Source: an uncultured Actinomycetes bacterium
Lineage (GTDB): Bacteria > Actinomycetota > Thermoleophilia > Gaiellales > Gaiellaceae
Assembly: GCA_963736295.1 (NCBI GenBank)
Contig: CAVTOH010000002.1
Location: 145,822-209,821 of the forward strand
Length of the DNA stretch: 64,000 nt
Reading direction: 5' to 3'
The stretch's first letter is position 1. Every line of letters starts with the position of its first letter. The position numbers were made by a program, and so were the translations under genes. Below are positions 3,391 to 60,256 of the stretch, piece by piece. The notes beneath the pieces were generated by a model. It did no database searches and had not been told where the DNA came from. It worked only from the letters and a program-made list of their open reading frames with translations.

Positions 3391-3398
3391 CGACGCAC

Positions 3399-4148: not shown

Positions 4149-4157
4149 GGTCACACA

Positions 4158-5189
4158 ATGGCCGAGGCCCTTGTCACGACGGTCGTCGGGAGCTACCCCC
4201 AGCCGGAGTGGCTGATCGACCGAGAGCGGCTCGGCGAGCGGCTGCCCCCGCGCGTGCGGGCGCGTGAGCTCTGGCGGGTGGCGGAGCAGTACCTCGAAGA
4301 GGCTCAAGACGATGCGACTCGGCTCGCGGTCTCCGACATGGAGCTGGCCGGCATCGACGTCATCACTGACGGCGAGATGCGGCGCGAGAGCTATTCCAAC
4401 CGCTTTGCGACCGCGCTCGAGGGCGTCGACCTCGACACCCCGGGCATCGCCCTCGATCGCACCGGCCACGAGAACCCCGTGCCCAAGGTGATCGGCCCGG
4501 TACGCCGCACGCGCCCCGTCGAGGTGCGGGACGTCGAGCTCCTGCGCGCCATGACCGACCGTCGGATCAAGATCACCGTTCCGGGGCCGTTCACGATGAC
4601 GCAGCAGGCCCAGAACGACCACTACCAGGACGAGCGGAGCCTTGCGCTGGCCTACGCAGAGGCGGTGAACGAGGAGCTGCGCGATCTCAAGGCCGCCGGA
4701 GCGGACGTCGTCCAGATCGACGAGCCATACCTGCAGGCGCGTCCCGAGCCCGCGCGTGAGTACGCCGTCGAGGCGATCGATCGTGCTCTCGCGGGAATCG
4801 AGGGCGAGACGGTGCTCCACACCTGCTTCGGGTACGCGCACATCGTCCACGACCGGCCCGACGGCTACCCGTTTCTCCGCGAGCTGAACGAATGCGCGGC
4901 CACGCATCTGTCGCTCGAAGCCGCCCAGCCGGATCTCGACCCGGAGGTCCTGAGCGATCTCCCGGACAAGTCCATCGTGTTCGGCGTCCTCGACCTGGGC
5001 TCGAGCGAAGCCGAGACGCCGGAGGTCGTCGCCGAGCGGATCCGGAGAGCGCTCGCCGTGGTTTCCCCGGACAGACTCGTCGTCGCGCCGGATTGCGGGA
5101 TGAAGTACCTGTCGCGGGAGCTCGCGTTTCGCAAGCTTCGCGCGCTGGTGGCCGGTACGCAGATCGTGCGCGGGGAGCTGGGCCTCTGA
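4158..5189 (+). CDS. Cobalamin-independent methionine synthase, catalytic-domain-only (MetE C-terminal domain family)
   Basis: VGSYPQPEWL, ITDGEMRRESY, Zn-ligand motifs HTCFGY and APDCGMKY. About 343 aa, as in short archaeal-type MetE. Confidence 0.8.
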   Translation: MAEALVTTVVGSYPQPEWLIDRERLGERLPPRVRARELWRVAEQYLEEAQDDATRLAVSDMELAGIDVITDGEMRRESYSNRFATALEGVDLDTPGIALDRTGHENPVPKVIGPVRRTRPVEVRDVELLRAMTDRRIKITVPGPFTMTQQAQNDHYQDERSLALAYAEAVNEELRDLKAAGADVVQIDEPYLQARPEPAREYAVEAIDRALAGIEGETVLHTCFGYAHIVHDRPDGYPFLRELNECAATHLSLEAAQPDLDPEVLSDLPDKSIVFGVLDLGSSEAETPEVVAERIRRALAVVSPDRLVVAPDCGMKYLSRELAFRKLRALVAGTQIVRGELGL

Positions 5190-39886: not shown

Positions 39887-42800
39887 CTACGTGGTCTTCT
39901 CGACCCGGAGCTCGCCGCCCTCTGCGTCCACGGAGGTCGCAAGGGTCTCCCGAGCGATCCACTCTCGGTGCTCGAGCAAGTCGGCGTCGGACTCCGGCAC
40001 GGTGAGCCGGACCCGATCCGTCAGCTCCAGGCCGGTCTCCTTCCTCAGTGTGTTGACCGCGTGAATGAGGTCGTAGACGCGACCCCGCCGAAGCAGGTCG
40101 TCGTCGAGGTGCAGGTCGAGCGCGACGGTGACCCCATCGGCGGTCGCCACGGCGAATCCCTCCTTCCCATGGCGCTCGACGAGCACCTCGCCAGCCGACA
40201 GGTCGTGACCCGCCGCCCGGAAGCCGCCGTCGGGAAGCTCCTCGAAGTCCCCTCCTTCGAGTGAAGCTCGCACGGCGCCGAGCTCCTTTCCGAGCTTCGG
40301 GCCGAGCACCGGGAGATTCGGCTTGACGCGGAGCTCGCTCGCATCGACTTGGCCGAACGAGACGGCCCGCACCCGCAACTCGTCCGCGATCTCGTCCGCA
40401 TGGCTCTTCGCAAGCGGTGCTCCCTCGACGACGAGCGCGCGAAGCGGCTGCCTAAGCTTCAGTCCCGAGGTCGAACGCGCCTGGCGACCGAGCTCGACGA
40501 CACGACGCAGCTCCGCGATCTCGGCCAGAAGAGCGTGGTCGGGCTCGGCCGCAGCGGGCCAGCCGGCGAGATGGACGGATGCCGGTGCGTCCTTGCACGG
40601 CGCGGTCAGCACCCGCCAGAGGTGGTCGGTGAGGAACGGCATGAGCGGAGCGACCACCCGAAGACCCTGGACGAGCGCAAACCATAGGGTTCCGAGGGCA
40701 ACCGGGTCTCCATCCCAGAATCTCCGCCGCGACCGGCGGATGTACCAGTTCGACACATCGTCGACGAAGGCTTCGTAGGAACGGACGGCGTCGACGGTTC
40801 GCCAGGTCTCGAAGGCGGCCGTTGCATCGACGACGAGCGCGCGAGTCCGCTCCACGAGCCACCGGTCGAGTGGCTCCAGGTCGCCGCCGGGCCCCGCCGC
40901 GAGGTCGGCCCACTCGGGCTTCCAGCTGTCGATGTTCGCGTAGTCGACGAGGAACTTGCAGGAATTCCAGAGCGTGAGCAGCTTCCGCTGGATCTCGTGA
41001 GCAGGCCCGTAGCCGAAGAGCAGGTTCTGGCTCGGCGGCTGCGCGCAGTACTGCCAGCGCATGACGTCCGCTCCCATCCGCTCGAGCGCCTCGTCGACCT
41101 GGATTGCGTTGCCCCAGGAGCGGTGCATCTCGCGGCCCGTCTCGTCCAGAAGCTTTTCGTAGGTGAGCACACGTTGGTACGGCGAGCGACCGACGAGCGT
41201 GACCGACATGAAGGAGATGGAGTAGAACCACAGCCGGATCTGCTCGCGCATCTCGGAGATCCAGTCCGCCGGGAACCACTGCTCCCAGTAGGCGTGATCC
41301 GGCAGGTCCGCACCGGTGAGGCCAGTCGCGGCACCTGTGCCGTTTCCCGCGTGCACGTACTCGGGGCTCTGCCACCCCAGCGTGGAGAGCGGGACGATCC
41401 CCGCGTCGAGCCACGCGTCGCCGACCTCCGGGATGCGCCGCACCGCCTCGGCGCACGCCTCGCAGCGAATCGGCACCTCGTCGATCCACGGTCGGTGGAG
41501 CTCCTGGAGCTGGTCGAGCCCTCTCACGGCACGTTCCTCGAGCTCCGCCCTCGAGCCGATCACGGTCAGATGGCCGCACTCGCAGGGGTAGAACGGCAAC
41601 GGCAGGCCGAAGTAGCGCTTCCGCGAGATGTTCCAATCGCCCATGTTGCGAAGCCAGTCGTCCATGCGCTTCGAGTAGAAGTCGGGCGTCCACTCGACCG
41701 TCGCGTTCGCGTCGAGCATGGGCTGGCGCACCTCGCCCGCGGAGATGAACCAGTCGTCGACGACGCGAAAGACGAGCGGAGTGCCACAGCGCCAACAGGT
41801 CGGATAGCGATGGACGACGCGGCCCGATTCGACGAGGAGCCCGCGAGCCTCGAGGTCGTCGATGACGGGCTGCGCGACATCGTCGGTGGAGAGCCCGTCG
41901 AATCCGAACCCGGGCAGCATGCGTCCCGCCTCGTCGAGCGGTGCCAGCACCTCGAGCTGGTAGGTACGGCCGAGCTCGAAGTCCTCCGAGCCTGCGCCCG
42001 GCGCGATGTGAACGATTCCGGTCCCTTCGTCGAGCGACACGTCGTCCCACGGGATGACGCGGTGCGCAACACCCTCCTGCGCCGGAAGATGGTCAAAGGG
42101 GCCTGTGTACTCGAGACCCACGAGCTCGCCGCCCAAGGCCGAGCGGACGAACGTCGCGTCCGGCTTCCGTGCGACGGCCCACCACTCGCCGTCCTCCGTG
42201 AGCCCGTAGTCCGCATCCGGGTTCACGGCCGCGGCGACGTTCGCCGGAAGCGTCCACGGCGTCGTCGTCCAGACGACGAGCGCCTCGCCGTCCCGCCCCT
42301 TCAAGGGCAGGCGCACGTAGAGCGACGGATGCTCGAGCTCCTTGTACTCGCCGGAGAAGACCTCGTGCTGGGAGATCGACGTTCCACAGCGCGGGCACCA
42401 GACCGTCGAGCGGTGGCCCTGGTAGAGCCAGCCGCGCCGGTGGACCTCGGCGAGGAAGCGCCAGATGTACTCGATGTTCGTGTCGGAGAACGTGTAGTAG
42501 TCGTTGTCCCAGTCCATCCACATCCCGAGCCGCTGCGACCGCTCGGTGATCTCCTCCGAGAACCGTGCAACGCGCTCGCGACACCTCGCGGCGAACTCGG
42601 CAAGGCCGTACTCCTCGATCTCGCGCTTCGAGTTGAGGCCGAGCGACTTCTCGACCTCGACCTCGACCCACAGCCCCTGGCAGTCGAATCCGTTCTGATA
42701 CCGCTGTTCGAAGCCGCGGAGCGCCTTGTAGCGCTGGAAGACGTCCTTGAGCGTCCGCCCCCAGGCGTGGTGGACGCCCATCGGGTTGTTCGCGGTGATC

Positions 42801-42949
42801 GGCCCGTCGATGAAGCTGAAGCGCGGCCCGCCTCGGTTCTGCGCGCGGAGCTGCTCGAACGTCCCCTCCCGCTCCCAGAGGGCGAGTATCTCCCGCTCGA
42901 GAGCGCCGTGATCCGGCTTGTCCGGGAGCGATGCGAAGATCGGCGGCAC
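39887..42949 (-). CDS. ileS: Isoleucine--tRNA ligase
   Basis: 1020 aa. Class I HIGH-type motif (PITANNPMGVHHAWGR), editing and anticodon-binding regions, and overall IleRS type-2-like pattern (WTTTPWTLPAN, YPTCWRCGTPL, CECGH). Intact frame. Confidence 0.95.
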   Translation of the reverse strand: MPPIFASLPDKPDHGALEREILALWEREGTFEQLRAQNRGGPRFSFIDGPITANNPMGVHHAWGRTLKDVFQRYKALRGFEQRYQNGFDCQGLWVEVEVEKSLGLNSKREIEEYGLAEFAARCRERVARFSEEITERSQRLGMWMDWDNDYYTFSDTNIEYIWRFLAEVHRRGWLYQGHRSTVWCPRCGTSISQHEVFSGEYKELEHPSLYVRLPLKGRDGEALVVWTTTPWTLPANVAAAVNPDADYGLTEDGEWWAVARKPDATFVRSALGGELVGLEYTGPFDHLPAQEGVAHRVIPWDDVSLDEGTGIVHIAPGAGSEDFELGRTYQLEVLAPLDEAGRMLPGFGFDGLSTDDVAQPVIDDLEARGLLVESGRVVHRYPTCWRCGTPLVFRVVDDWFISAGEVRQPMLDANATVEWTPDFYSKRMDDWLRNMGDWNISRKRYFGLPLPFYPCECGHLTVIGSRAELEERAVRGLDQLQELHRPWIDEVPIRCEACAEAVRRIPEVGDAWLDAGIVPLSTLGWQSPEYVHAGNGTGAATGLTGADLPDHAYWEQWFPADWISEMREQIRLWFYSISFMSVTLVGRSPYQRVLTYEKLLDETGREMHRSWGNAIQVDEALERMGADVMRWQYCAQPPSQNLLFGYGPAHEIQRKLLTLWNSCKFLVDYANIDSWKPEWADLAAGPGGDLEPLDRWLVERTRALVVDATAAFETWRTVDAVRSYEAFVDDVSNWYIRRSRRRFWDGDPVALGTLWFALVQGLRVVAPLMPFLTDHLWRVLTAPCKDAPASVHLAGWPAAAEPDHALLAEIAELRRVVELGRQARSTSGLKLRQPLRALVVEGAPLAKSHADEIADELRVRAVSFGQVDASELRVKPNLPVLGPKLGKELGAVRASLEGGDFEELPDGGFRAAGHDLSAGEVLVERHGKEGFAVATADGVTVALDLHLDDDLLRRGRVYDLIHAVNTLRKETGLELTDRVRLTVPESDADLLEHREWIARETLATSVDAEGGELRVEKTT

Positions 42950-43041
42950 GTTCGTCAGTCTAGGAACTGGGAAGAACGGCGGCGCCGGGGTCGTTTAAGG
43001 TCTAGCCATTCGAGAAACGAATACACGCAAGAAAGGAACAC

Positions 43042-43359
43042 ATGGCAATCGAGGTAACCGAGACGACGTTCGAGCAGGAAGTGCTGACGTCGGAGACACC
43101 CGTCCTCGTGGACTTCTGGGCGGAGTGGTGCGGCCCATGCCACGCGGTGGCGCCGGTGCTCGAGAAGATCGTCGAGGAGCGAAACGGTGAGCTGAAGCTC
43201 GTGAAGGTCAACATCGACAACGAGCAGGCGCTCTCGCTCAAATACGGGGTCATGTCCATCCCGATGATGATCCTGTTCAAAGACGGTGCGCCGGCTGCGG
43301 CCGCTGTCGGAGCGCAGCCGAAGTCGGCGCTCGAGCGCGCGCTCGGGCTCGCGGCTTAG
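43042..43359 (+). CDS. trxA: Thioredoxin
   Basis: VLVDFWAEWCGPCHAVAP...YGVMSIPMMILFKDG. 105 aa, AAAGGAA Shine-Dalgarno. Confidence 0.95.
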   Translation: MAIEVTETTFEQEVLTSETPVLVDFWAEWCGPCHAVAPVLEKIVEERNGELKLVKVNIDNEQALSLKYGVMSIPMMILFKDGAPAAAAVGAQPKSALERALGLAA

Positions 43360-43412: not shown

Positions 43413-44039
43413 TTAGCAGGATGTTTTGCGTTCGAGGCTTCCCCCTCCCCCTCCCCTACCGATAGGCCGGCTTAGCCGGCCTATCGTCCTTGTCGGCTTC
43501 GTCTTACTGCTCGGCGATAGGCCAGCGAGGAACGGGCCGACCCAGGTAAACGCGCACTCCTCCGGCGGAGGTAGCTCGCTCAGCGAGAACCACCGGAGCT
43601 CCGCGACGTCGTCGGCGGGAGCGGGATCACCAGCGACGATCCGCGCGCGCCAGACGAGGTTGAGGACGCTCGTCGGAGCTGGGGCCGTCGCCGTAGCCGT
43701 CGACGAAGACGCCGAGGAAGTCGCCGGGCTCGACTTCGAGCCCCGCCTCCTCGCGAAGCTCCCGCCGAAGTCCCGCGAGCGGGCTTTCGCCCTCTTCGAG
43801 GAAGCCGCCGAGGAGATCCCAGCGGCCCGATGTCCGGCTCGACTGCTCGCCGCGCGAGGAGCACCGAGCCCGCGTCGTCCGTCACGAGGCCGGAGACGGC
43901 GGGCGCGGAGTGTCGCGTAGTAGACGGAGCCGCAGGCCGGGCATGCGGCCCGCCCGTCCTGCGCGTCGAGCTCACTCGCGCAGCGCGGGCAGACACGCCA
44001 TCCGTGCAGGAATCCCATCCGGGTACCGTACTGCGCCAT
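43413..44039 (-). pseudogene. NUDIX hydrolase with NudC-type N-terminal zinc ribbon, at least three frame changes
   Basis: Zn ribbon CPRCASELDAQDGRAACPACGSVYY (frame a). PAVSGLVTDDAGSVLLARRAVEPDIG (frame b). Nudix box GGFLEEGESPLAGLRRELREEAGLEV (frame c). VLNLVWRARIVAGDPAPADDVAELRWFSLSELP (frame a again). Confidence 0.75.
43460..43486. terminator. Perfect 12-bp palindrome with TTA loop, preceded by a C-rich tract (candidate trxA terminator)
   Basis: CGATAGGCCGGC-tta-GCCGGCCTATCG, immediately after CCCCCTCCCCCTCCCCTACC. No U-tract. Confidence 0.35.
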
Positions 44040-44050
44040 GTCGCCCCGCC

Positions 44051-44410
44051 ATGTCCCTGCCAACGTCGCCGAGCTCGCAACGCGTCGGACTGCTGGCAAG
44101 CCTTCCGGGCGAGACGCTCGGCAAGCTCGCCGAGCGGATGCAACGCCAGGAGGTCGCCTCGGGGACCGTGCTCATTCGCGAAGGCGAGCCGGGGGACCGG
44201 TTCTTCGTGTTGCTCGCGGGGCTCGCGGCGGTGTCGCAGTCGGCTCTCGGCGAGCGCAAGGTCCTGCGCGCGGGCGAGTACTTCGGCGAGGTCGCGCTCG
44301 CGATGCACATCCCCCGAACCGCCACCGTCACAGCGATGACATCGTGCGTCGTCGCGAGCTGCGACGAGACGACTTTCGACGAGCTGATCCGGCCGCTCTT
44401 CGCCGACTAG
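44051..44410 (+). CDS. Stand-alone cyclic-nucleotide-binding domain protein
   Basis: 119 aa with the cNMP-binding fold pattern (VLIREGEPGDRFFVLLAG...GEYFGEVALAMHIPRTATVTA). No DNA-binding domain follows. Confidence 0.7.
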   Translation: MSLPTSPSSQRVGLLASLPGETLGKLAERMQRQEVASGTVLIREGEPGDRFFVLLAGLAAVSQSALGERKVLRAGEYFGEVALAMHIPRTATVTAMTSCVVASCDETTFDELIRPLFAD

Positions 44411-45234: not shown

Positions 45235-45615
45235 ATGGAGCGCCGCAACATCGCCGGCACCGGGGCGTACGAGCCGATCGTCGGCTACTCGCGCGCAGTC
45301 GTGGCAGGCGATCGAGTGCACGTCTCCGGCACTGCTGCTAACCCCGCCGACGGCTCCCCGCCGCCGGACGACATCTACGACCAGACCATCGTCTGCCTCG
45401 AGCTCATCGGCACGGCGCTCGAGAAGGCGGGCTCGAGCCTCGAGCACGTTGTGCGGACGCGTGTCTACCTGACGGATGCCGATGACTTCGACGGCTTCGC
45501 GCGAGCACACGCGGAAGTCTTCGGCGAGGTCCGTCCCGCGAACACGACCGTCCTCGCAGGCCTCTTCGACCCGCGGTGGAAGGTCGAGATCGAGGTCGAG
45601 GCGGTGCTCCCGTGA
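45235..45615 (+). CDS. RidA/YjgF/UK114-family protein
   Basis: YSRAVVAGDRVHVSGTAA...EHVVRTRVYLTDADDFDGFARAH...RPANTTVLAG...VEIEVEAVL. Confidence 0.8.
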   Translation: MERRNIAGTGAYEPIVGYSRAVVAGDRVHVSGTAANPADGSPPPDDIYDQTIVCLELIGTALEKAGSSLEHVVRTRVYLTDADDFDGFARAHAEVFGEVRPANTTVLAGLFDPRWKVEIEVEAVLP

Positions 45616-45730
45616 GTGGCGTCGCTCGCCTTCGGCTCGCTCTCGTGGAGGAAACCATGTTTCCCCCACGTTCCCCCTTCTTCTTGAAGATCGTGGGGGA
45701 ACCTCCCGGTTCCCCCACACCCCCTCCACC

Positions 45731-45761
45731 CGCTCATGGGCGAGTAACTCGCCCATGAGCG
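45731..45761 (+). promoter_or_regulatory. Perfect 14-bp palindrome with TAA loop spanning the predicted start codon of the carboxylate-amine ligase gene
   Basis: CGCTCATGGGCGAG-taa-CTCGCCCATGAGCG. The right arm contains ATG 45755. The left arm encodes the mini-frame ATG-GGC-GAG-TAA. Confidence 0.3.
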
Positions 45762-46966
45762 ACGGCAAGCAGGCGTTCCCACCCTCGATCACGGGAAAGG
45801 GCGCCGCGTACGGGGGCAGCGTCCTCGACCACAACTTCGGCGGCGGCGAGCCCTACACACTCGGCGTCGAGGAGGAGTACCAGCTGCTCGACGGCAACAC
45901 GTTCGACCTCGTCCAGCACATCGAGACGATGCTCGCTGCGATCTCCGGACACGAGCTCGAGCCGCGCATCAACCCGGAGCTCATGCAGTCCGTCATCGAG
46001 ATCACGACTCCGGTGTGCAGGAACGCCGGAGATGTGATGCGCGAGCTCATGAAGCTACGGAGCTACGTGACCGAGATTGCCCGCGAGCGCTTGATGCGCG
46101 TCGGCTCGGCCGGGACGCACCCGTTCAGCCTCTTCGAGCGGCAGCGGATCACGGCCAAGGACCGGTACCGGGCTCTGATCGACCAGATGCAGTACGTCGC
46201 CCGCAGGGAGCTCATCTTCGGAATGCACGTGCACGTCGGCGTCGACGGCCCCGAAAAGGCCATCCAGGTCGTCAACGGTCTCCTTCCACAGCTCTCGCCG
46301 CTCCTCGCGCTCTCGGCGAGCTCGCCCTTCTGGCGAGGCGAGCCCACGGGCCTCGCCTCGAGCAGGCAGATGGTGTTCTCGGCGTTTCCCCGCTCGGGAC
46401 CGCCGCCGCGCTTCCGCGACTACATGGACTACGCCGAGGTGGTCGGGCAGCTCGAGCGCTCGGGGTGCATCGCCGACTACACCCACATCTGGTGGGACAT
46501 CCGCCTCCACCCGCGCCTCGGCACGGTCGAGATCCGCATCTGCGACGCGGTCACGCGGGTCGAGGACGCGGTCGCGATCGCCGCGTACTGCCAGGCGCTG
46601 GTCAAGCTCCTCTCGGAGCGCTTCGACGCCGGCGAGGAGATCCCGTCCTACCACCGGATCCTCACGACCGAGAACAAGTGGCTCGCAGCGCGCTACGGCC
46701 TCGAAGCGCCCGTCATGGATCTCGCCTCGGGGCGGCGGAACCGCGTGCCGGTCGCACGCATCGTGCGCCGGACGCTGGCCGAGATCGAGCCGCATGCGCG
46801 CGAGCTCGGCTCCGAGCGCGAGCTCGAAGGGATCCTCGACATCCTCGCCCGCGGAAACAGCGCCGACCGCCAGCTGCGGATCTTCAACTCGAACCGGGAC
46901 ATCGTCGAAGTCGCCCGCGAGATCGCAGAGGCGACCGAGGCGCTGCCCGCAGCCGTCCAGTCCTAG
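45755..46966 (+). CDS. Carboxylate-amine ligase, glutamate-cysteine ligase family 2 (YbdK-like)
   Basis: YTLGVEEEYQLLD, ELMQSVIEITTPV, GTHPFS, RELIFGMHVHVGV, PFW, WWDIRLHPRLGTVEIRICD. Confidence 0.85.
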   Translation: MSDGKQAFPPSITGKGAAYGGSVLDHNFGGGEPYTLGVEEEYQLLDGNTFDLVQHIETMLAAISGHELEPRINPELMQSVIEITTPVCRNAGDVMRELMKLRSYVTEIARERLMRVGSAGTHPFSLFERQRITAKDRYRALIDQMQYVARRELIFGMHVHVGVDGPEKAIQVVNGLLPQLSPLLALSASSPFWRGEPTGLASSRQMVFSAFPRSGPPPRFRDYMDYAEVVGQLERSGCIADYTHIWWDIRLHPRLGTVEIRICDAVTRVEDAVAIAAYCQALVKLLSERFDAGEEIPSYHRILTTENKWLAARYGLEAPVMDLASGRRNRVPVARIVRRTLAEIEPHARELGSERELEGILDILARGNSADRQLRIFNSNRDIVEVAREIAEATEALPAAVQS

Positions 46967-47815: not shown

Positions 47816-48781
47816 TCAGGGGCCGTAGACGATGCAGGCGTCGTGGGCCGCCCGCGCGACTTTCCGGACAGCGCGGACGCTTCCATTCCGATCGAGGACG
47901 CTGAGCGTCCCGCGAGCCAGCGACGGAGAGATGACGTAGTCCCAGCCGAACGTGACGTTGTACGAGCCCGGAGGGACGCGTGACTGGCGGACGAGCTCGC
48001 CGCCGAGCCGGTAGCGAAGGACGGTGCCGTCGTCACCGCTTGCGACGAACGCCTTCTCGCGGGCGAACGTGACGTGCTGCGGGGGTGCCCCCGCCGGCAG
48101 AATCCGAAGGGTGCGCTGATCACGTCCGTAGAGAGCGATGCGTCGTTCTGCCCCGGAAGTGACCCACACGGCCTCACCGTCGGGCGCAAACACGACGTCG
48201 TGCGCGAGGAAGGGCGGCGAGATCGTCCGTACGAGCTTCGGCCGGCGTGGGTTGCTGGCGTCGAGCACGGCGATGCGAGACGCAGCCGTCCCCAGCGCAG
48301 TCCAGAGCGTGCGGCCGCCCGGGCCGATGCCGATGTGCCGCGCTGGCCCGGGGACGGACGTACGCCAGATCACTCGCCGACGGTCGGCGTCCACGACCGC
48401 GATCTCCTCGGCTGCGGAGTCCGTGACGTACGCCAGCGGGACCCGCGGATGGACGGCGGTGTAGCGCGGCGCTGCGAAGCCGTCGAGCTCGCTGCGAACC
48501 CGCGCAGTCGCGGCGTCGAGCAACGTGACGACGCCGTGCTCCGTGTGCGCCACGAGTGCGATCCGGTCGTGCACGGACTCGATGCTCCGCGGGCCGGGCC
48601 CGGTGCGAATACGCGTGACGACGTCGGCCGACTCGAGGTCGAGCACGACGACATGGCTCTCGAGGTCGGCCGTCACATAGGCAACCGGCGTTCCTCCGAG
48701 CCGGGTGGCGAGCGCAAACGGCCCGCTCGCAAGAGCGAACGAGCCGGAAACCGCGCCGACCAGGAACCGTCGCCTGTCCAT
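47816..48781 (-). CDS. Tat-signal beta-propeller protein (YncE/YVTN-repeat-like)
   Basis: Twin-arginine leader MDRRRFLVGAV. Repeated ~40-aa units (…AYVTADLESHVVVLD…, …AYVTDSAAEEIAVVD…, …LWTALGTAASRIAVLD…). Confidence 0.65.
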   Translation of the reverse strand: MDRRRFLVGAVSGSFALASGPFALATRLGGTPVAYVTADLESHVVVLDLESADVVTRIRTGPGPRSIESVHDRIALVAHTEHGVVTLLDAATARVRSELDGFAAPRYTAVHPRVPLAYVTDSAAEEIAVVDADRRRVIWRTSVPGPARHIGIGPGGRTLWTALGTAASRIAVLDASNPRRPKLVRTISPPFLAHDVVFAPDGEAVWVTSGAERRIALYGRDQRTLRILPAGAPPQHVTFAREKAFVASGDDGTVLRYRLGGELVRQSRVPPGSYNVTFGWDYVISPSLARGTLSVLDRNGSVRAVRKVARAAHDACIVYGP

Positions 48782-48891
48782 GCTCCAACTACGTCTTAGG
48801 GCACCGGCGAGGTCCGGGACCTCTCACCGGCCGGGATCCGTATCCCGGGCATGGACCTCTCGCGCAGGTTCGGTCGTAGTCTGGGCACGGG

Positions 48892-49401
48892 ATGCGTGCG
48901 GGTCGTGACGAGCGCGCCCGCGTACGCGGCGCGCAGGAGGGATCGGCCTCGGATCTCGAGGCTCTCTTCCGCAACCACTGGCCGCGCGCGTTCAGGGCCG
49001 CCTACCTCGTCACGCACGACGCTCAGGCCTCCGAAGACATCGCGCAGGAGTCCTTCCTCGCGGCGATCCGGGCGCTCGACCGCTTCGACCGCAGGCGGCC
49101 CTTCGGTCCGTGGCTCCACCGCATCGTCGTCAACCGCGCGATCGACTGGACGCGGGCTCGAACGCTACGAGCCGAGGTCGAGCTCTCCGAGTCCCTGCCG
49201 GCGAGTCGGTCGTCCGAGGCTCCTGGCGACGACACGCTCTCGGCACTCGCGCGGCTTTCAGCAGAGCACCGCGCGGTGATCGTGATGCGCTACCTGCTCG
49301 AGTTCACGCCCGGCGAGATCGCGGAGGCGCTCGATCTCCCGCGGGGCACCGTCAACTCGCGGCTGCGGCGCGGGCTGGACGCCCTCGAGGAGGAGCTGTG
49401 A
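48892..49401 (+). CDS. ECF-type RNA polymerase sigma-70 family factor
   Basis: Region 2 (AYLVTHDAQASEDIAQESFLAA...FGPWLHRIVVNRAIDW) and region 4 (EHRAVIVMRYLLEFTPGEIAEALDLPRGTVNSRLRRG). Confidence 0.85.
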   Translation: MRAGRDERARVRGAQEGSASDLEALFRNHWPRAFRAAYLVTHDAQASEDIAQESFLAAIRALDRFDRRRPFGPWLHRIVVNRAIDWTRARTLRAEVELSESLPASRSSEAPGDDTLSALARLSAEHRAVIVMRYLLEFTPGEIAEALDLPRGTVNSRLRRGLDALEEEL

Positions 49402-50510
49402 AGCGCGAGCTCGAGCAGATCGAGATCCCGGAAGAGCACGCTGCGAGCGAGCGAGCGTGGAGCGTGGTGCGATCTGCCTTCGACGAGCGGCCCGCGGTCG
49501 AGCACCGCCAGCGGCGTCTGTGGCCTGTCGTCGCGCTCGCAGCCGTCGCAGCGGTCGTCGCAGCGGCTCTCAGCCCTCCCGGCCGGGCTGTCGTGGACGA
49601 GATCCGCGAGGTCGTCGGCGTCGAGCGCGCGCAACCAGCCCTGTTCTCACTGCCCGCGCAGGGCCGCCTGCTCGTTTCGTCCGACGCCGGCATCTGGATC
49701 GTCCAGCAGGACGGCTCGAAACGTTTGCTCGGCGACTATCGCGAGGCGAGCTGGTCGCCATTCGGCCGCTTCGTCGTGGCTGCACGCGCGAACGAGCTCG
49801 CCGCGCTCGAGCCCGATGGCGACGTCCGCTGGACGCTGGCGCGCCGAGGCGCTCGGTCTCCGCGCTGGACCGGCACGGAGGCGGACACGCGAATCGCGTA
49901 CGCCGACCGCACCGGCATCCGCGTCATTGCCGGCGACGGCACCGGCGACCGCCCGCTCGTGCCGGCAGCGCGTGGCCCGTTCGACTGGAGGCCAGGTACC
50001 GGCTTCGTGCTCGCGTACGCAGCCGCCCGGACGGTTCGAGTCCTGAATGCCGAGACCGGGCGCGAGCTCGCCAGTGTCACGCGACCGGCCGGGCCCGTGA
50101 CGGCAATCGAGTGGTCCGCCGACGGCCGCAGGCTCCTCGTCCTGTCGCCGCACCACCTCCGGGTGTACGACGTTCGCCTGGATCTCGTCGGTCAGGAGGA
50201 CCCGGCAGAAGGCTGGCCCGACGTGGATGCCGTTTTCCGGCCGACCTCGCACGAGGTTGCCGTGGCGCGCGTGCACGGCTCGCAGAGCACCGCCTACGTG
50301 CTGAACGGACGTGATCTCTTCAACGGAACGGGCGTCTTCCGCGAGCTCGCCTGGTCGCCCGACGGGCGCTGGCTGCTCGTCGGATGGCAGACCGCAGACC
50401 AGTGGGTCTTCGTCCGGGCGGAGGGCGGGCGAAGGATCCGCGCGGTCGCGAACGTGTCCGAGCAGTTCCGCTCCGAGACGTTCCCGGACATCGAGGGGTG
50501 GGTGCCATAA
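49398..50510 (+). CDS. Putative anti-sigma factor: single TM followed by a TolB/WD40-like beta-propeller domain
   Basis: GTGA overlap with the sigma gene. TM LWPVVALAAVAAVVAAAL. Periplasmic repeats (ASWSPFGRFVVAA, IEWSADGRRLLV, LAWSPDGRWLLVG). Confidence 0.65.
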   Translation: MKRELEQIEIPEEHAASERAWSVVRSAFDERPAVEHRQRRLWPVVALAAVAAVVAAALSPPGRAVVDEIREVVGVERAQPALFSLPAQGRLLVSSDAGIWIVQQDGSKRLLGDYREASWSPFGRFVVAARANELAALEPDGDVRWTLARRGARSPRWTGTEADTRIAYADRTGIRVIAGDGTGDRPLVPAARGPFDWRPGTGFVLAYAAARTVRVLNAETGRELASVTRPAGPVTAIEWSADGRRLLVLSPHHLRVYDVRLDLVGQEDPAEGWPDVDAVFRPTSHEVAVARVHGSQSTAYVLNGRDLFNGTGVFRELAWSPDGRWLLVGWQTADQWVFVRAEGGRRIRAVANVSEQFRSETFPDIEGWVP

Positions 50511-50519
50511 GCTCCGCGT

Positions 50520-50985
50520 GTGCTCGGCCCCGGCGACAATGTCCCTGACACTCAGGTCTGGGCGGCGCCCCGCGAGGAGTCGCGCCCGCTGAAGGAGGTG
50601 CTTGGTGCCGGCCTGGCCTTGCTGTGTTTCTACGTCTGGGACTGGTCTCCGACCTGAACGAACGAGCTCATGCTCCTGCGGGACAGGGGCGACGACCTCG
50701 CGGCTGTGGGTGTACGACCGCTCGCGATCTCGCGAGACTCGCCGTGGTCGCACCTCGCGTGGGCTCAATCGCTCGGCGTGGACGTGCCGTTGCTGTCCGA
50801 CTGGAACGGCGAGACGACGCGCGCGCTTCGGCGTCGCCGTCGAGATCCTCGGCATGGACGACGTCGCACTCCGCACGTGCTTCCTGATCGAGGACGGCAA
50901 GACGATCAAAGAAGCGTGGATGCTCGGCCGTGAGCTGCCCGACATCGACGCCGTGATCGCCGCCGCGCGCGGGCTCGCAGCCTGA
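50520..50985 (+). pseudogene. AhpE-like 1-Cys peroxiredoxin, with in-frame TGA at the peroxidatic Cys codon (50655-50657) and a frame change near 50818-50828
   Basis: VLGPGDNVPDTQVW...ALLCFYVWDWSPT-[TGA]-TNELMLLRD...LAISRDSPWSHLAWAQSLGVDVPLLSDWNGETTRA, then a +1 shift into FGVAVEILGMDDVALRTCFLIEDGKTIKEAWM. This matches the Prx pattern FxPxxxTxxC(T/S)xE, with the stop in place of C. Confidence 0.7.
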
Positions 50986-51269
50986 CGAGCCGTCAGCTCC
51001 GGCTCGATAGGGCGGCGGCGCTGTGTCACGAGGGAGACACTTCGAGGGTCACGACCGTGACAGACAACAGGGCACGGCGCGCCTACCGTGGTCGAGGTAC
51101 GCCGAAACACAGGGGGACAAAAGTGAGGCAGGCAGTCGCAGCCCTCGTATCTGCACGAGCGCTGGCGTCGAGACACGAGACAACGAGCCGAGTACCGGCT
51201 CTCCCGGACGACGAGCAGGTCACCCCCGTGGTGCACCGTCGCCGCCGGATGTCGTGGGCGTGGATCGCG

Positions 51270-51932
51270 TCAGTGTGGAAGACCACGCACGCGAGCTGAG
51301 AGCGCGTCCGCGTCCAGCACTCGCACTCGACCTCGCTCGAGCGAGACGACACCGCGATCCTGCTCCTCGCGGAGCACGCGGTTCACGGTGCCGCGGGCCG
51401 TGCCCGCCAGCTCGGCCAGGCTCTCCTGCGTGAGCGGCACGACGGCCACACTCCCGCCGCCGTAGACCGGGACGAGCTGGAGGAGGGCCCAGCGAACGCG
51501 CGCGTCGGCATCGAGGAAGTGACTGGCGGTGATGTGTCGGTCTGCGAAGCGAAGCCGGTCGGCAAGGAGCCTGACGAGCACGTCCTTGAGCTCCGGGTAC
51601 TCGTCGAGCAAGGCTCGGTACGCATCTCCGCCGATCGAGAGCGTCTCTCCCGCCTCCAGCGCTGCGACGGTGACCGTCCGGTGAGCCGTCGCCTCGAGTA
51701 GCGCAAACTCTCCGAACGTCTCGCCGGGGCCGCGGACGGCCAGCATCGCCGACTGCCCGACCGGCGACACGACCCGGACCGCAAATCGGCCCTTGGTGAT
51801 CAGGTGGAGCGCGTCGGCCGCGTCGCCCCGATGGAACACGATCTGGTCGCGCTCGAACGTGCGTCGCCGGGCCATCGCGAGAAACCGGCGCACGTCGTCG
51901 GGCGGCACGCCCGCGAGGACGCGAAACTCCAT
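51270..51932 (-). CDS. Crp/Fnr-family transcriptional regulator
   Basis: cNMP-binding domain (IVFHRGDAADALHLITKGRFAV...GETFGEFALL) and C-terminal HTH (TQESLAELAGTARGTVNRVLRE). Confidence 0.85.
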   Translation of the reverse strand: MEFRVLAGVPPDDVRRFLAMARRRTFERDQIVFHRGDAADALHLITKGRFAVRVVSPVGQSAMLAVRGPGETFGEFALLEATAHRTVTVAALEAGETLSIGGDAYRALLDEYPELKDVLVRLLADRLRFADRHITASHFLDADARVRWALLQLVPVYGGGSVAVVPLTQESLAELAGTARGTVNRVLREEQDRGVVSLERGRVRVLDADALSARVRGLPH

Positions 51933-51970
51933 CGCTCGAGGGTAGACCTTCGCGGCCTAGTAGCGGTACC

Positions 51971-52769
51971 TCACATGCCCATCGAGTGGTACCCGGCGTC
52001 GACGTACAGCGTCGTGCCGGTGACATTCCGCGAGTCGTCCGAAAGCAGGTACGCAGCCGCGGCGCCACAGTCCTCCGCCTCGATCTGGCGATGCAGCGGG
52101 GCCCGATCCTCGAACATCGTCTCCATCGTCGTGAACCCGGCGATGGAGCGTGCGGCGAGCGTCCGAACCGGGCCCGGCAGAGATCGCGTTCACGCGGATG
52201 TTCTTGAAACCGAGGTCCCACGCGAGGTAGCGGACCGAGGAATCGAGCGCCGACTTGGCGACACCCATGACGTTGTAGTGCGGCACGGCGCGCTCGCCGC
52301 CCAGGTAGGTCATGGTCAGGATCGAGCCTTCGCCGCGCGCCTCCATCAGCGGCTCCGCGGCCTTCGAGCATGCGACGAGCGAGTACGCGCTGATGTCGAG
52401 CGCCATCCAGAAGCGGTCGCGCGGGGTGTCGGTGAAACGCCCCTCGAGATCCTCCGCAGCGGCAAACGCGACCGAGTGGACGAGGATGTCGAGCCCGCCG
52501 CCGAACGTTTCGGACACCTCGGAGAAGACACGCGCGACGTCGTCGTCGGAGCGGACGTCACACTCGGTCACGAGCGGACTCGAGACAGTCTCCGCAAGGT
52601 CCCGGACGCTCTTCTCGATTCGCTCGCCCTGATACGTGAACGCGACCTGGGCTCCCTCGTCGGCCAGCCGACTCGCGATCGCCCAGGCGATCGAGCGCTT
52701 GTTGGCGACGCCCAGCACGAGCGCCTGCTTACCCTCGAACCTGCGCCCTTCGGTGCTGGCGGCCACCAC
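51971..52769 (-). pseudogene. fabI: Enoyl-[acyl-carrier-protein] reductase (NADH) FabI, one frame change near 52165-52175
   Basis: GKQALVLGVANKRSIAWAIA, LDILVHSVAFA, YNVMGVAKSALDSSVRYLA, RVNAISAGP in ORF 51957..52769. The rest (VRTLAARSIAGFTTMETMFEDRAPLHRQIEAEDCGAAAAYLLSDDSRNVTGTTLYVDAGYHSMGM) reads in the adjacent frame, ending at TGA 51971-51973. Confidence 0.85.
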
Positions 52770-52798
52770 AGGAGCCTAAACGGATAGGCTCGCCCGCG

Positions 52799-53578
52799 AT
52801 GAGCGAGGCGCGGGTGGCCGTGGTGACTGGAGCCTCGTCCGGCATCGGGGAGGCCACCTCGCGGGAGCTCGCGCGCCGCGGTTGGCACTGCGTCCTCCTC
52901 GCGCGACGGCAGGACCTGCTCGAGAAGGTCGCGCACGAGATCGGCGGCGAGTGGGAGCTCTGCGACGTCTCGGACCGGGTCCAGGTCGACGAGGTCGCCG
53001 CACGGGTCCTCGAGCGGCACCCGGCCATCGGGATCCTCGTGAACAACGCGGGCATCCCCGCGCGCGGGAGCTTCCTGGACATCGATCCCGAGCGCATCGA
53101 GCAGGTGATCGCCTGCAACTACCTGGGGGGCGTCTGGTGCCTACGGGCGTTCGAGCCCGGTCTGATGGCTGCGGCAAGCGCCGGCGGGGCGCATGTCGTC
53201 AACCTCGTCTCGGTCGCGGGCACCGTCGCGTTCGCGCCCGCCGGAGCCTACTCGGCGGCCAAGCACGCGCAACTCGCGTTCTCGCGATCGACGGCCGCGC
53301 TCCTGCAGCCGAGCGGCATCCAGGTGCACACGATCCTGCCCGGCTTCGTCGAGACCGAGGGCTTCCCGCAGCGCAAGGCGCTCCGGAGCGCGTTGCTGCG
53401 GCGCTTCGTCATCGAGGCGGACGATGTCGCCAGAGCGATTGCGAACGCCGTCGAGAAAGGAAAGGGAGAGGTCACCGTGCCCTGGTTCCCGTATCGGTTG
53501 ATCTCGATCGCGCAAGCGGTGCTCCCGGGTGTCTTCGCCCGGCTCGGCCGGCGCGCCGGCTACCACCGGGACGAATAG
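52799..53578 (+). CDS. Short-chain dehydrogenase/reductase (classical SDR)
   Basis: VVTGASSGIGEA, LVNNAG, YSAAKHA catalytic motif. Confidence 0.85.
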   Translation: MSEARVAVVTGASSGIGEATSRELARRGWHCVLLARRQDLLEKVAHEIGGEWELCDVSDRVQVDEVAARVLERHPAIGILVNNAGIPARGSFLDIDPERIEQVIACNYLGGVWCLRAFEPGLMAAASAGGAHVVNLVSVAGTVAFAPAGAYSAAKHAQLAFSRSTAALLQPSGIQVHTILPGFVETEGFPQRKALRSALLRRFVIEADDVARAIANAVEKGKGEVTVPWFPYRLISIAQAVLPGVFARLGRRAGYHRDE

Positions 53579-53585
53579 CCCCTCT

Positions 53586-54263
53586 CTACGGACCGGACTT
53601 GCGGGCGGAGTACCAGCCGACCTCGATGTCGTAGGTCGCGCCCGGCGAGAGCCCACGCACCCGAACGCGCTCGTCCTCCGGGACGCCCGCGAGCTCGAGC
53701 CGCTTCTCGAGATCGACGCGCTCGGTGACGATCTCGGCGCTGACGAGCACGAGGTCGTTCGCGTCGAGAAATCCGCGGATGTCCGCGTCGGGGAGGAGCC
53801 GCTGGTGGCTCGGGTCGCGCACCCGCTCGAAGCGGTCCATCTCGAAGCTCCGCAGCGGGTCGACGGATCCGAGCTGGTCCATGATCAGGATCCGGCCTCC
53901 GGGGCGAGTCACGCGGGTCAGCTCGGCGACCGCGAGCTCGGGCCGGTGTACGTGGTGGAGAAGGCGCAGGCAGCCGGCGATGTCGAACGACGCGTACTCG
54001 AACGGAAGAGACATCGCGTCGCCTTCGATGATTCGGACGTTCGCGGGCGCCTGTGTGCGCGCTGCCTCGAGATACTCCGCGCGCGTATCCGCTCCGACGA
54101 CCTCGGCGACGAAGGGCGCGAGCGCGAATGCGAGCGCGCCGGTCCCGCAGCCGCTGTCGAGCGCGACCTCCGAGCCCGAGAACGGCCCGAGCATCCGACG
54201 CACTCTGTCGGTGGTCTCGGTCGCCCGTTCCTCCTGGAGCGCGATCCGCAGGTTGACGCTCAC
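53586..54263 (-). CDS. Class I SAM-dependent methyltransferase
   Basis: Motif I ALDSGCGTGALAFALA. GTG 54263 overlaps the upstream stop (GTGA). Confidence 0.75.
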   Translation of the reverse strand: MSVNLRIALQEERATETTDRVRRMLGPFSGSEVALDSGCGTGALAFALAPFVAEVVGADTRAEYLEAARTQAPANVRIIEGDAMSLPFEYASFDIAGCLRLLHHVHRPELAVAELTRVTRPGGRILIMDQLGSVDPLRSFEMDRFERVRDPSHQRLLPDADIRGFLDANDLVLVSAEIVTERVDLEKRLELAGVPEDERVRVRGLSPGATYDIEVGWYSARKSGP

Positions 54264-55300
54264 GTGCCGCTCGTATCCCGAGCGAGGGTGCGTGCGAGGT
54301 CGAGCGCCTCGGCCCGCGTCGAGATCGTTCCGGCTGCTCGTTCCTCGTCGATGGCCGCGAGGATACGTCCGATCTCGGGTCCCGGTGGGAGACCGAGCTC
54401 GTCGCCGCGCACGAGTGGCTCGTCGGGATCCGCGAGTCGGGCGGCCTCGACCATCTCTCCGAGCTCGGATGCGCCGACGAACGCGAGCGCGTCGAGAGCC
54501 CACGGCTCCGTCCCACGCCGGAACCGGTGGATGCCACGCGGCGACGGCTCGGGGCGCTCCGCACGGAGCAACGCTGACGCATACCGACGAAGGTCGCGGG
54601 AGACCGGAAGCCGCCCGAGCTCTCGCCCGAACACTGCGACGAGCCGGAACCCGGGATCGTCGAAGGCCTCGAGAGGCCCGTCGAGCGTGCCGGCGAGCGG
54701 CTCCAGCAGGCCGAGCTCCCCGAGCCGTCGGTAACCCCGAGCGGACAGGCGCTCGAGCTCGCCCAGGATCCGCTCGCCGGCGGGGCTGGCCACCAGACCG
54801 ACCGCCTCTCGCACGAGCGCCTCCGTCTTCTCGTCCATGCGGAACCCGAGCTCGTCCTCCAGCCGCACCGCCCGCAGGAGGCGAAGCGGATCGTCCTCGA
54901 ACACGCGCTCGGAGACCGCACGGACGACTCCCGCCGCGAGATCGCGCTCACCGTCGAACGGGTCCACGGCCCCCCCACCCGCGACCGGGACGGCGATGGC
55001 GTTGAACGTGAAGTCGCGGGTCGCGAGATCGTCCTCGATGCCGTCGCGCAGCGGAGTGAAGTCGACCGTCTCCTCGGAGCCGGCCGCAATCACACGCCAA
55101 GCCCCGTGGCGCTCCGAGAGCGGGAACGGCGCACCACCGAACAGGCGAGCGAAGCGGCGCGCGGCAGCCTGGGGATCACGGCATGAGACATCAAGGTCGA
55201 CGATGGGGCGCCCGAGCAGCGCATCGCGAACGGCTCCGCCGACGATCCACGCCTCCTCGTCCCCCAGGATCTCGCTGATGCGCTCGTCGTGGACGGTCAT
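54260..55300 (-). CDS. cca: CCA-adding tRNA nucleotidyltransferase / poly(A) polymerase family protein (short form)
   Basis: IVGGAVRDALLGRPIVDLDV, RDFTFNAIA, DPLRLLRAVR. ATGA overlap with alr. Confidence 0.8.
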   Translation of the reverse strand: MTVHDERISEILGDEEAWIVGGAVRDALLGRPIVDLDVSCRDPQAAARRFARLFGGAPFPLSERHGAWRVIAAGSEETVDFTPLRDGIEDDLATRDFTFNAIAVPVAGGGAVDPFDGERDLAAGVVRAVSERVFEDDPLRLLRAVRLEDELGFRMDEKTEALVREAVGLVASPAGERILGELERLSARGYRRLGELGLLEPLAGTLDGPLEAFDDPGFRLVAVFGRELGRLPVSRDLRRYASALLRAERPEPSPRGIHRFRRGTEPWALDALAFVGASELGEMVEAARLADPDEPLVRGDELGLPPGPEIGRILAAIDEERAAGTISTRAEALDLARTLARDTSGT

Positions 55301-58895: not shown

Positions 58896-60256
58896 TCAGC
58901 CCTCGAGAGCTGCGGGCAACAAGGCGAGAAGGTCGCTCGCGACGAGACCCGCGCGATGCGGGGCGAGCAGCGCGGCCCGCGCGTGTGCGACCGCGGCGGC
59001 CGCTGCGGCGAGCTGGGGCTCGAGGCCCTTCGCGAGGAACGAGGCGACGACCCCGGTGAGCACGTCACCGGTGCCGGCAGTCGCGAGCGACGGCGGGCCG
59101 AGGTCGCTGACGATCACGCCCGCGGCGGGTGCAGCGACGATGGTGTCCGGCCCCTTGAGCAGGACGACGGCCCCGAAGCGGTCGGAGGCGGCTCGGACTG
59201 CTTCGAGGCGGTGCGCGTCCACCCACCCCGCGTCGCTGTCGAGGAGACGCGCCAGCTCGCCCGCGTGCGGCGTGAGCACGAGCGGCGCCTGCCGCTGCAC
59301 CGGGTGCAGCGCGTACAGGCCGTCCGCGTCGACGACTGCCGGCAGCGCGAGGTCTTCGAGCAGGGTGCGGACGAGCTCCGCGCGGCCCGCTCCCCGCCCG
59401 AGGCCGGGGCCGATCGCGAGCGCGCCGGCACGCTCGGCAGCAGCAGTGATGGTCTCCAGCAGCGCTGGACCGCGCTCCAGCCGATCTTGACCGGCTCGAG
59501 CGCGATCGCCTCCGCGGCTGCCAGCGACTCCTCGGGTACGGCCAGCGTGACGTAGCCCGCGTCGGCCCGCATCGCGGCGAGCGCCGTCAAGCAGGCCGCG
59601 CTCGTCATGCCGGGCTGACCGCCGACGACGAGGACCGAGCCGGCGCTGTACTTCGTGTCACCCTCGACGCGCCGCGGGACGAGGCCGAGGAGCTCCCGGG
59701 TCGCGCGCCTGCCCTCGGTCGGAAGCTCGTCGAGCCCGATGTCCACGACGACGACCGTGCCTGCGTGGAACCGGCCCGGCGCGACGACGTGGCCGACCTT
59801 GAGCGCGTGGAACGTCACGGTCAGATCGGCCTCGACGGCGACAGCTGCGACCTCTCCGGTGGAGGCGTCGACACCGGAGGGAAGATCGACGGCGACGACC
59901 GGGGCCGCCGCGCGGTTGATGCGGGCGATGAGCTCGGCTGCCTCGGGGCGCGGCTCACCATGGAAGCCGGTGCCGAAGAGCGCGTCGATTACGACGTCGT
60001 AGCCGTCGGGCTCTGCCGCCTCGTCGGCGACGTGACCCGCCTCGCGGAGCACGCGTGCCGCAACTCTGCCGTCACCACCGTTCGAGCCTCCGCCGCAGAC
60101 GCAGGCGAACCGCCGTGCTGCCGGATACGCGAGCATCGCCTCTCGGGCGACCGCGGCGCCTGCCCTCTCCATCAGCTCCGGCACGGAGGCTGGGTAGCCG
60201 GGATACCGCTCCTCCGCGGCGCGCATCTCGGCGGCGGTGTAGAGCGGCTCGAACAT
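58896..60256 (-). pseudogene. nnr: Bifunctional NAD(P)H-hydrate repair enzyme Nnr (epimerase + ADP-dependent dehydratase), one frame change near 59467-59482
   Basis: YjeF_N part (CVCGGGSNGGDGRVAAR, DALFGTGF, VDLPSG) and the start of the carbohydrate-kinase part (KYSAGSVLVVGG) are in ORF 59114..60424. The remainder (ALAIGPGLG...TPHAGELARLL...VLLKGPDT...TAGTGDVLTG) is in the frame of ORF 58896..59300. Confidence 0.85.

Follow-up and report, generated by a model that had tools for sequence, protein, structure and literature searches.

The stretch of DNA analysed here, 64,000 nucleotides from an uncultured Gaiellaceae bacterium (Thermoleophilia, Actinomycetota) and called the window below, carries a peroxiredoxin gene of the AhpC/TSA family at 50520-50985 on the + strand. 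The gene comprises about 154 codons after removal of a 1-nt insertion. Its frame opens with GTG at 50520-50522 (+ strand), where relatives have ATG or GTG (ATG in L003, GTG in L001 and L002), and reads VLGPGDNVPDTQVW...LLCFYVWDWSPT up to a TGA at 50655-50657 (+ strand, codon 46), followed by TNELMLLRD. This TGA is the sole in-frame stop and occupies the position of the peroxidatic Cys. Beyond it the translation continues as TNELMLLRDRGDDL... in the same frame. Past ...DWNGETTRA, the peroxiredoxin sense moves to the +1 frame (FGVAVEILGMDDVALRTCFLIEDGKTIKEAWMLGRELPDIDAVIAAARGLAA), whose part of the protein runs FGVAVEILGMDDV...AARGLAA and ends at the TGA terminator at 50983-50985 (+ strand). The preceding gene stops at TAA 50508-50510, and a Crp-family regulator (51270-51932) is convergent with the peroxiredoxin. 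In 20 of the 80 related loci described below, RidA and a GCS2-family glutamate-cysteine ligase immediately precede the peroxiredoxin; in the window, GCS2 (45473-46966 in the window annotation) is separated from it by an ECF sigma factor (48880-49401) and two beta-propeller proteins, and a thioredoxin lies at 43006-43359.

The repaired 154-aa protein, in which the TGA is translated as Cys and the extra base is deleted, matched Pfam AhpC-TSA (PF00578) at E=7e-21, scoring 74.8 bits (cut-off 26) and covering profile positions 2-123 of 124. When it was aligned by HMMER with the BCP/PrxQ protein of A. pernix (2cx3), the TGA position (Cys in the repaired query) fell on the peroxidatic Cys. The segment FFPAAFSPVCTKEL of 2cx3 was aligned with FYVWDWSPT[U]TNEL of the window, so that SPVCTKEL stands opposite SPT[U]TNEL. 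An earlier reading of the letters, referred to here as the sequence-only reading, had placed the TGA precisely at the catalytic Cys, and the alignment agrees with this. Its coordinates for the GTG 50520 frame and for the only stop in it were also reproduced on translation.

The change of frame within a (CG)n run, seen in the same reading, is present in the sequence as given. Pairwise alignments to L003 and L004 showed one extra base at about 50825, in a CG run at 50820-50826 (+ strand), and this insertion was absent in all 80 related loci. L004 (ERZ25039555:contig_31709) is a sibling contig 98.0% identical to the window, not the window itself, and its peroxiredoxin is intact with the same TGA (VLGPGDKVPDTQVW...SPT, TGA, TNEL...GETTRAFGVAVEILGMDDV...AARGLAA, stop). 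Six single-base indels distinguish the window from L004 over 6.7 kb, three in each assembly. The earlier remark that other genes of the window are broken also proved right. A second window-only 1-nt insertion at 52173 truncates fabI, which encodes the normally essential enoyl-ACP reductase; the Pfam match of fabI in the window ends at profile position 175 of 236, and each half retains about 91% identity to its L001 orthologue. Comparison with many relatives supports additional breaks of frame near 43.7-43.9 kb, 45.2 kb and 59.4 kb. The contig_N type of name suggests a long-read assembler, and on another contig named in this way the isoleucyl-tRNA synthetase is broken into two calls. Because the insertion at about 50825 is missing from the 98% sibling and from all relatives, and is mirrored by the private insertion in fabI, the comparison points with good confidence to a single-base consensus error of the assembly. 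The frameshift had been put forward as a possible sign of decay, and this is contradicted by its private nature.

The conservation of the TGA codon was followed in relatives. A protein homologue search covering 5.8 billion proteins gave orthologues at 60-96% identity, and the lengths of the homologues were bimodal. SPTCTNEL is found in the full-length homologues (about 152-156 aa, 54-74% identity). At 80-96% identity, the closest database relatives are shorter calls of 100-103 aa, nearly all beginning from MLLRD right after the TGA position, and a separate 45-aa ORF upstream of the TGA is also called in the annotation of relatives. Truncated calls that start just past a TGA are the usual signature of a misannotated selenoprotein. 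Three related contigs (L001/P0058, L002/P0001 and L003/P0022) showed the same TGA with both flanks open and conserved and with no frameshift. P0001 was translated by JGI with Trp at the TGA codon, which is probably an annotation choice.

A genome scan with one genome per GTDB species gave 80 loci, all in Gaiellaceae, Gaiellales or Thermoleophilia MAGs. The codon at the peroxidatic position was TGA in 77 of these species-level loci and TGC in three, and it was TGC or TGT in 59 filtered metagenomic homologues of the Cys form. The active-site motif of the TGA loci was DWSPT-U-TNEL or DWSPG-U-TNEL. Whether orthologues have TGC or TGA at this codon was a question raised by the sequence-only reading, which had named TGC in all relatives and no conserved hairpin as the picture that would speak against a Sec codon; the picture found was the opposite one on both counts, with the hairpin (see below) present in every TGA form.

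Frame continuity over the TGA was strict in all 77 TGA genomes, the TGA forms were stop-free for 95 codons beyond it, and both flanking frames were open in the 15 loci examined at full length. These proteins have diverged to about 63% identity. The pN/pS ratio was 0.42 before the TGA and 0.38 after it, indicating that both parts of the gene are translated and constrained alike. No conserved start codon was found after the TGA among the TGA forms; codons +4/+5 were mostly CTG, CTC, CAC or TAC (at +5, CTG in 36, CAC in 16, TAC in 6, and others). TGA also serves as an ordinary terminator here, ending 14 of the 34 long ORFs of the window and 31 of the 79 orthologous Sec-form genes, and genome-wide reassignment of TGA, as in code 4, is therefore excluded. 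Other in-frame TGAs within coding-like sequence were searched for in the window and the 80 related loci, and only the peroxiredoxin cluster was protein-like across the TGA.

A SECIS-like hairpin lies 13 nt past the TGA at 50671-50691 (+ strand). It consists of UGCUCCUG (50671-50678), the apical loop CGGGA (50679-50683) and CAGGGGCG (50684-50691), which form an 8-bp stem in the window, exactly as had been described from the letters. The conserved core at 50673-50689 pairs as CUCCUG / CGGGA / CAGGGG. The 21-nt hairpin alone folded at -11.4 kcal/mol (z=-3.2), and 0 of 200 shuffles folded as well; the 17-nt core alone gave -6.5 kcal/mol. The wider 51-nt context had z=-1.3, which is unremarkable for GC-rich sequence, so the signal from the single sequence is modest, and the earlier warning that GC-rich RNA easily forms stems was justified.

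The RNAalifold consensus of 78 distinct TGA-form sequences was a 6-bp stem, CUCCUG/CAGGRG, closing a 5-nt loop, and the two additional base pairs of the window were not general among TGA forms. The core CUCCUG-CG(G/U)GA-CAGGRG was present in all 80 TGA forms, with the loop CGGGA in 42, CGUGA in 37 and UGGGA in 1. Base-pair covariation among the 78 sequences was not significant; there were only 2 double-change cells (for example CUUCUG...CAGAAG in L005), a number matched by shuffles. Thus, of the expectation that the hairpin would be conserved and co-vary, the first part stands and the second does not. An extended 14-bp stem that includes the predicted lower stem of the window was also considered. 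It gave no covariation excess over shuffles, and its pairs 15-40, 17-37 and 18-36 were broken in 27-43 of the 78 sequences. The hairpin claim is limited to the 6-bp core.

The codons that form the hairpin were compared between TGA forms (n=79) and Cys forms (n=59). The Leu codon at +6 was CTC in 75 TGA forms; in the Cys forms it was CTC in 25 and CTG in 13, and the residue was not always Leu. The Leu codon at +7 was CTG in all 79 TGA forms, and in the Cys forms CTG in 27, CTC in 15 and others in the rest. At the loop Arg (+8), TGA forms had CGG in 41, CGT in 37, TGG in 1 and CGC in 0, whereas CGC was the commonest codon of the Cys forms (26). The Arg codon at +10 was AGG in 78 TGA forms versus CGC in 22, CGG in 19 and AGG in 5 Cys forms; at other conserved Arg codons of the gene, AGG occurred in at most 6 of 78 sequences. 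The codon entropy was 0.24 bits at +6, 0.0 at +7 and 0.10 at +10, compared with about 1-2 bits at most other conserved 4-6-fold degenerate codons of the gene. Cys forms with the identical LLRDR peptide had no hairpin, and their mean 17-nt energy was -1.84 kcal/mol versus -6.69 kcal/mol for the TGA forms (p=3e-11). In the nearest Cys forms, P0003 (74% identity) and P0007 (70%), the same peptide is encoded by CGG-GAC-CGG and CGA-GAC-CGC, and the stem is destroyed. The support for a hairpin at the RNA level thus comes from synonymous conservation, which is strong and specific to the TGA forms, and from the contrast with the Cys forms, not from compensatory changes.

The hairpin was also compared with the bacterial SECIS model of Zhang and Gladyshev (bSECISearch, as given in PMC13188914). 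The model has a loop of 3-9 nt and a stem of 4-16 bp, and the element has 5 nt and 6-8 bp. A G is expected at position 1 or 2 of the loop, with G or U as the usual next nucleotide (PMC13188914); the loop here begins C-G-[G or U], G and U being both of the nucleotides observed at that place. The distance from UGA to loop is 21 nt, within the range of 16-37 nt, and the 21-nt element of the window, at -11.4 kcal/mol, lies below the MFE limit of -7.5 kcal/mol (PMC13188914). The element thus lies within the published model on each feature, in agreement with the earlier judgement that its spacing and G-containing loop are typical of SECIS elements. On the other hand, compared with the bacterial consensus, the element of the window is very short, almost invariant in the clade and devoid of significant covariation. 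Searches of Rfam gave no SECIS family, either for the window at the gathering threshold or for 50600-50780 at E up to 10. Bacterial SECIS elements are poorly represented in Rfam (10.64898/2026.04.03.716425), so this null result is uninformative.

Genes of the Sec machinery were searched for near the peroxiredoxin. A search with ARAGORN of the window and of about 1.9 Mb of related loci, which comprise only the roughly 20-kb flanks of the same gene, detected no tRNA-Sec. Likewise, tblastn with E. coli SelA, SelB and SelD gave no match to selA, selB or selD in the window and the same 1.9 Mb of flanks, a search of low power.

Several explanations other than selenocysteine were weighed. The change from TGC to TGA takes a single substitution, and the window copy is frameshifted and lies among other broken genes, so the locus could be taken for a decaying peroxiredoxin gene that has suffered a nonsense mutation and a frameshift. 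However, a pseudogene cannot account for a nonsense codon that is kept at the catalytic position in 77 of 80 species-level genomes while the proteins diverge to about 63% identity. The absence of further stops and the pN/pS of about 0.4 on each side of the TGA contradict decay as well, and the frameshift belongs to the window contig and not to its 98%-identical sibling, in an assembly whose frameshifts also strike fabI, as expected of assembly error. A dead gene, which the sequence-only reading had kept as a real alternative, is accordingly highly improbable. A milder version is that the family is a genuine selenoprotein and that only the copy of this strain was inactivated by a real insertion at about 50825. 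The insertion is indeed present in the sequence as given, but the equal division of the six indels between the two assemblies, the break of fabI in the window only and the split isoleucyl-tRNA synthetase on a similarly named contig argue against it, and we consider this version unlikely. Gene callers predict both a 45-aa and an approximately 100-aa ORF, and two such polypeptides might assemble into a peroxiredoxin-like fold. The strictly kept frame across the TGA in 77 genomes and the lack of a conserved start codon past it stand against such a split gene, in which the catalytic residue would moreover be absent; its probability is close to nil.

Genomic data reveal that a codon is recoded, not which amino acid is inserted, and the UGA might be read as a residue other than Sec, either as Cys by a SelB-dependent tRNA(Sec)-like tRNA or as Trp or Cys by near-cognate read-through. 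Cys-charged tRNAs of this SelB-dependent kind reportedly occur in some Actinobacteria, and the JGI translation of P0001 has W at this codon. Against this, the site is that of the catalytic Cys, where Trp would abolish activity; the hairpin agrees with the bSECIS model of the SelB type; and Sec-containing peroxiredoxins are a well-documented family. Code-wide reassignment of TGA has been described in Eggerthellaceae (PMC13462651), and it is inapplicable to genomes that use TGA as a normal terminator. We regard non-Sec recoding as very improbable. A related and broader idea is that the UGA and hairpin are decoded outside the canonical Sec pathway, for example by a Cys-charged tRNA(Sec)-like tRNA, or that the Sec trait is maintained by this peroxiredoxin and not by FdhA or SelD in a very abundant clade of soil Actinomycetota. 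This is also quite improbable; if either were true, ideas about the proteins that sustain Sec decoding, or about UGA recoding in Actinomycetota, would have to be revised.

Selenocysteine remains the favoured reading. The 77 of 80 TGA loci, the Cys in distant orthologues and the hairpin specific to TGA forms support the earlier interpretation of the TGA as a Sec codon at the peroxidatic position, and we hold with high confidence that the TGA of this gene family is recoded in the manner of Sec. Judged from sequence comparison, the catalytic Cys has very probably been replaced by selenocysteine. The gene is real and strongly conserved, and it is very probably a selenoprotein gene that has been misannotated, representing a known mechanism and not a new one. 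In the proposed mechanism, the peroxidatic residue would be encoded by UGA and read as selenocysteine, and the hairpin within the coding sequence (6-8 bp stem, C-G-(G/U)-G-A loop, 21 nt past the UGA) would act as a bacterial SECIS element. While the ribosome pauses at the UGA, the hairpin would bring SelB·GTP·Sec-tRNA(Sec) to it, leading to Sec insertion instead of termination. We infer Sec as the inserted residue, binding of the hairpin by SelB, and the presence of selA, selB, selC and selD in the genome. The enzyme may reduce peroxides by forming a selenenic-acid intermediate within (L/V)xxxSxxU, and the invariant Arg118 is its putative activating residue. At about 50825, the change of frame would be a single-base insertion error of the assembly, outside this biology.

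The subfamily of the peroxiredoxin was examined by sequence and by structure. Among PDB sequences, A. pernix BCP/PrxQ (2cx3) was the best match (E=1.6e-14), and M. tuberculosis AhpE matched with E=2e-7. An AlphaFold (AF2) model was available for the Cys orthologue P0003, not for the window protein. It had a pLDDT of 96.3 and the thioredoxin-like peroxiredoxin fold, with the peroxidatic residue, Cys46, in the first turn of helix alpha2 (helix 44-55). The top Foldseek hits of this model were all peroxiredoxins with TM 0.78-0.88; Bcp4 gave TM 0.88, and AhpE gave TM 0.85 with the highest identity, 30%. As far as this model represents the family, BCP/PrxQ and AhpE match about equally by fold. The sequence-only reading had called the protein AhpE-type, which holds only in part, since the sequence is nearer to BCP/PrxQ; we describe it as a BCP/PrxQ-AhpE-like peroxiredoxin of about 154 aa. 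No NCBIfam model tested reached its cut-off. The best, PrxU (NF040737), scored 40.8 bits against a cut-off of 270, and the protein is thus not a PrxU orthologue.

The active site follows the PxxxT/SxxC(U) pattern with a conserved Arg and one deviation: the canonical Pro at -7 is Leu or Val in the TGA forms. Ser is found at -3 in all 80 TGA forms, and Arg118 is invariant. Position +5 after the Sec or Cys is Met, Leu, His or Tyr, and the Cys of LLCFY is variable. No conserved second (resolving) Cys was found among the relatives compared, which suggests a 1-Sec mechanism for the peroxiredoxin.

In the public gene calls examined, the gene is split or shortened, as in the 103-aa 'redoxin domain-containing protein' of NCBI from a Gaiellaceae MAG, and many MAG proteomes thus do not contain the full-length product of a probable peroxide-detoxifying enzyme. 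Sec decoding is implied to be widespread in Gaiellaceae, whose genomes came here largely from soil-type metagenomes, and this bears on selenium use in soil. For studies of how Sec and Cys replace each other in a peroxiredoxin that lacks a conserved resolving Cys, the 77 Sec forms can be compared with Cys forms as near as 70-74% protein identity. The SECIS core, which is minimal (17 nt) and hardly varies, could serve engineering. No new principle is involved, since Sec-peroxiredoxins and bSECIS elements are well known.

Peroxiredoxins with T/SxxU are an experimentally established selenoprotein family, for which repeated independent Cys-to-Sec conversions have been inferred and which was counted in 78 organisms in 2016 (PMC1794560, PMC5029168, PMC13188914); the earlier statement that such selenoproteins are known elsewhere is correct. 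Rubrobacter xylanophilus, like other deep-branching Actinobacteria, has selenoproteins (PMC1794560). The selenoprotein-rich hosts of that study are mostly anaerobic Clostridia and Deltaproteobacteria (PMC1794560), unlike the soil Gaiellaceae that carry the form described here. Our literature search turned up neither a report of selenoproteins in Gaiella, Gaiellales or Thermoleophilia nor one of AhpE/BCP-like Sec-peroxiredoxins.

Among the known systems, PrxU of Eubacterium acidaminophilum (NF040737) shares the superfamily and fold (PF00578) with the window protein, and it likewise has Sec for the peroxidatic Cys in (T/S)xxU, an in-frame hairpin after the UGA and Cys orthologues. The window protein differs in its length, about 154 aa versus a model of 233 positions, and in lacking a conserved resolving Cys. 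It departs from the canonical PxxxTxxC as well, having Leu/Val for Pro and Ser for Thr in all 80 TGA forms. M. tuberculosis AhpE (Rv2238c, 1-Cys, PDB 1XXU/1XVW) is also actinobacterial, is similar in size (about 153 aa) and has no resolving Cys at the usual positions. However, AhpE uses Cys, and its sequence similarity to the window protein is modest and below that of A. pernix BCP/PrxQ. The reductant of AhpE is mycoredoxin/mycothiol. The BCP/PrxQ proteins (A. pernix 2CX3/4GQC, S. solfataricus Bcp4 3HJP and X. campestris PrxQ) share the SP(V/T)C(U)T(K/N)EL stretch with the window protein and reach the highest TM, up to 0.88, whereas the A. pernix protein has a second Cys at +5 (SPVCTKELC) and Cys, not Sec, at the peroxidatic position.

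The gene calls made across the in-frame TGA of the peroxiredoxin gene were compared. The JGI call Ga0679473_0639381 (protein P0001; positions 308-772 of L002, a contig with the same TGA) runs through the codon and places Trp there, giving SPTWTNEL, as though translated under code 4. The NCBI and ENA calls cut the gene down to ~100 aa. Both the Trp read-through and the ~100-aa calls are annotation artefacts of one very probable Sec codon.

The window was also compared with contig L004 (ERZ25039555 contig_31709). Over window positions 48270-54932, the two are 98.0% identical, with 125 mismatches and six single-base indels, and the window Crp protein has an exact match on L004, which is a sibling of the window and a distinct contig. 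In the window, one extra nucleotide at ~52173, private to this sequence (GGGCCC[G]GT), shifts the frame of the fabI gene (enoyl-ACP reductase; 51957-52769, minus strand), and a 51-aa ORF at 51971-52126 is the continuation of the FabI C-terminus past the break. Because the insertion is missing both from L004 (98% identical) and from L001, a related MAG contig with the same TGA, it is probably an assembly error. Further frame breaks were located by tblastn against related genomes at ~43467-44150 (minus strand), ~45215 (plus strand), ~59414-59477 (minus strand), ~48815, ~54270 and ~55300, each backed by several to dozens of these genomes, and the gene at 43.5-44.2 kb has three frame changes. The breaks across the window suggest an indel rate of about one per 1-3 kb in this assembly. 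On L001, the isoleucyl-tRNA synthetase (3369-6447, minus strand) has been split between two gene calls, one of 519 aa and the other of 503 aa; the window homologue is unbroken (39887-42994, 1035 aa), and the split probably reflects an indel in the L001 assembly.

Two MAGs carry a TGA-form peroxiredoxin copy on each of two contigs: MFD05454.bin.1.254 (L026 and L031) and MFD09368.bin.2.119 (L079 and L082). Each pair may represent paralogues, haplotypes of different strains or duplicates that arose in binning.

In 20 of the 80 loci, with Sec and Cys forms both represented, the peroxiredoxin gene is arranged with genes for RidA (Ribonuc_L-PSP) and GCS2 (glutamate-cysteine ligase family 2). The arrangement is present at L001 8263-10309 and at 1-1959 of L152-L155. 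The three genes are tightly packed, and their start and stop codons abut or overlap. This packing hints that the reductant of the peroxiredoxin could be a gamma-Glu-Cys-type thiol. Between GCS2 (45473-46966) and the peroxiredoxin gene, the window has two beta-propeller genes and a gene for an ECF sigma factor.

The active-site motif of the Sec forms was set beside the canonical peroxiredoxin PxxxT/SxxC. At codon -7 from the TGA (window 50634-50636), the position of the canonical Pro, the TGA-form loci encode Leu in 41 cases and Val in 36; the full set of TGC/TGT pattern matches, a few of them not homologues, has Pro in 24 and Leu in 35 at the same position. At position -3, every member has Ser instead of Thr.
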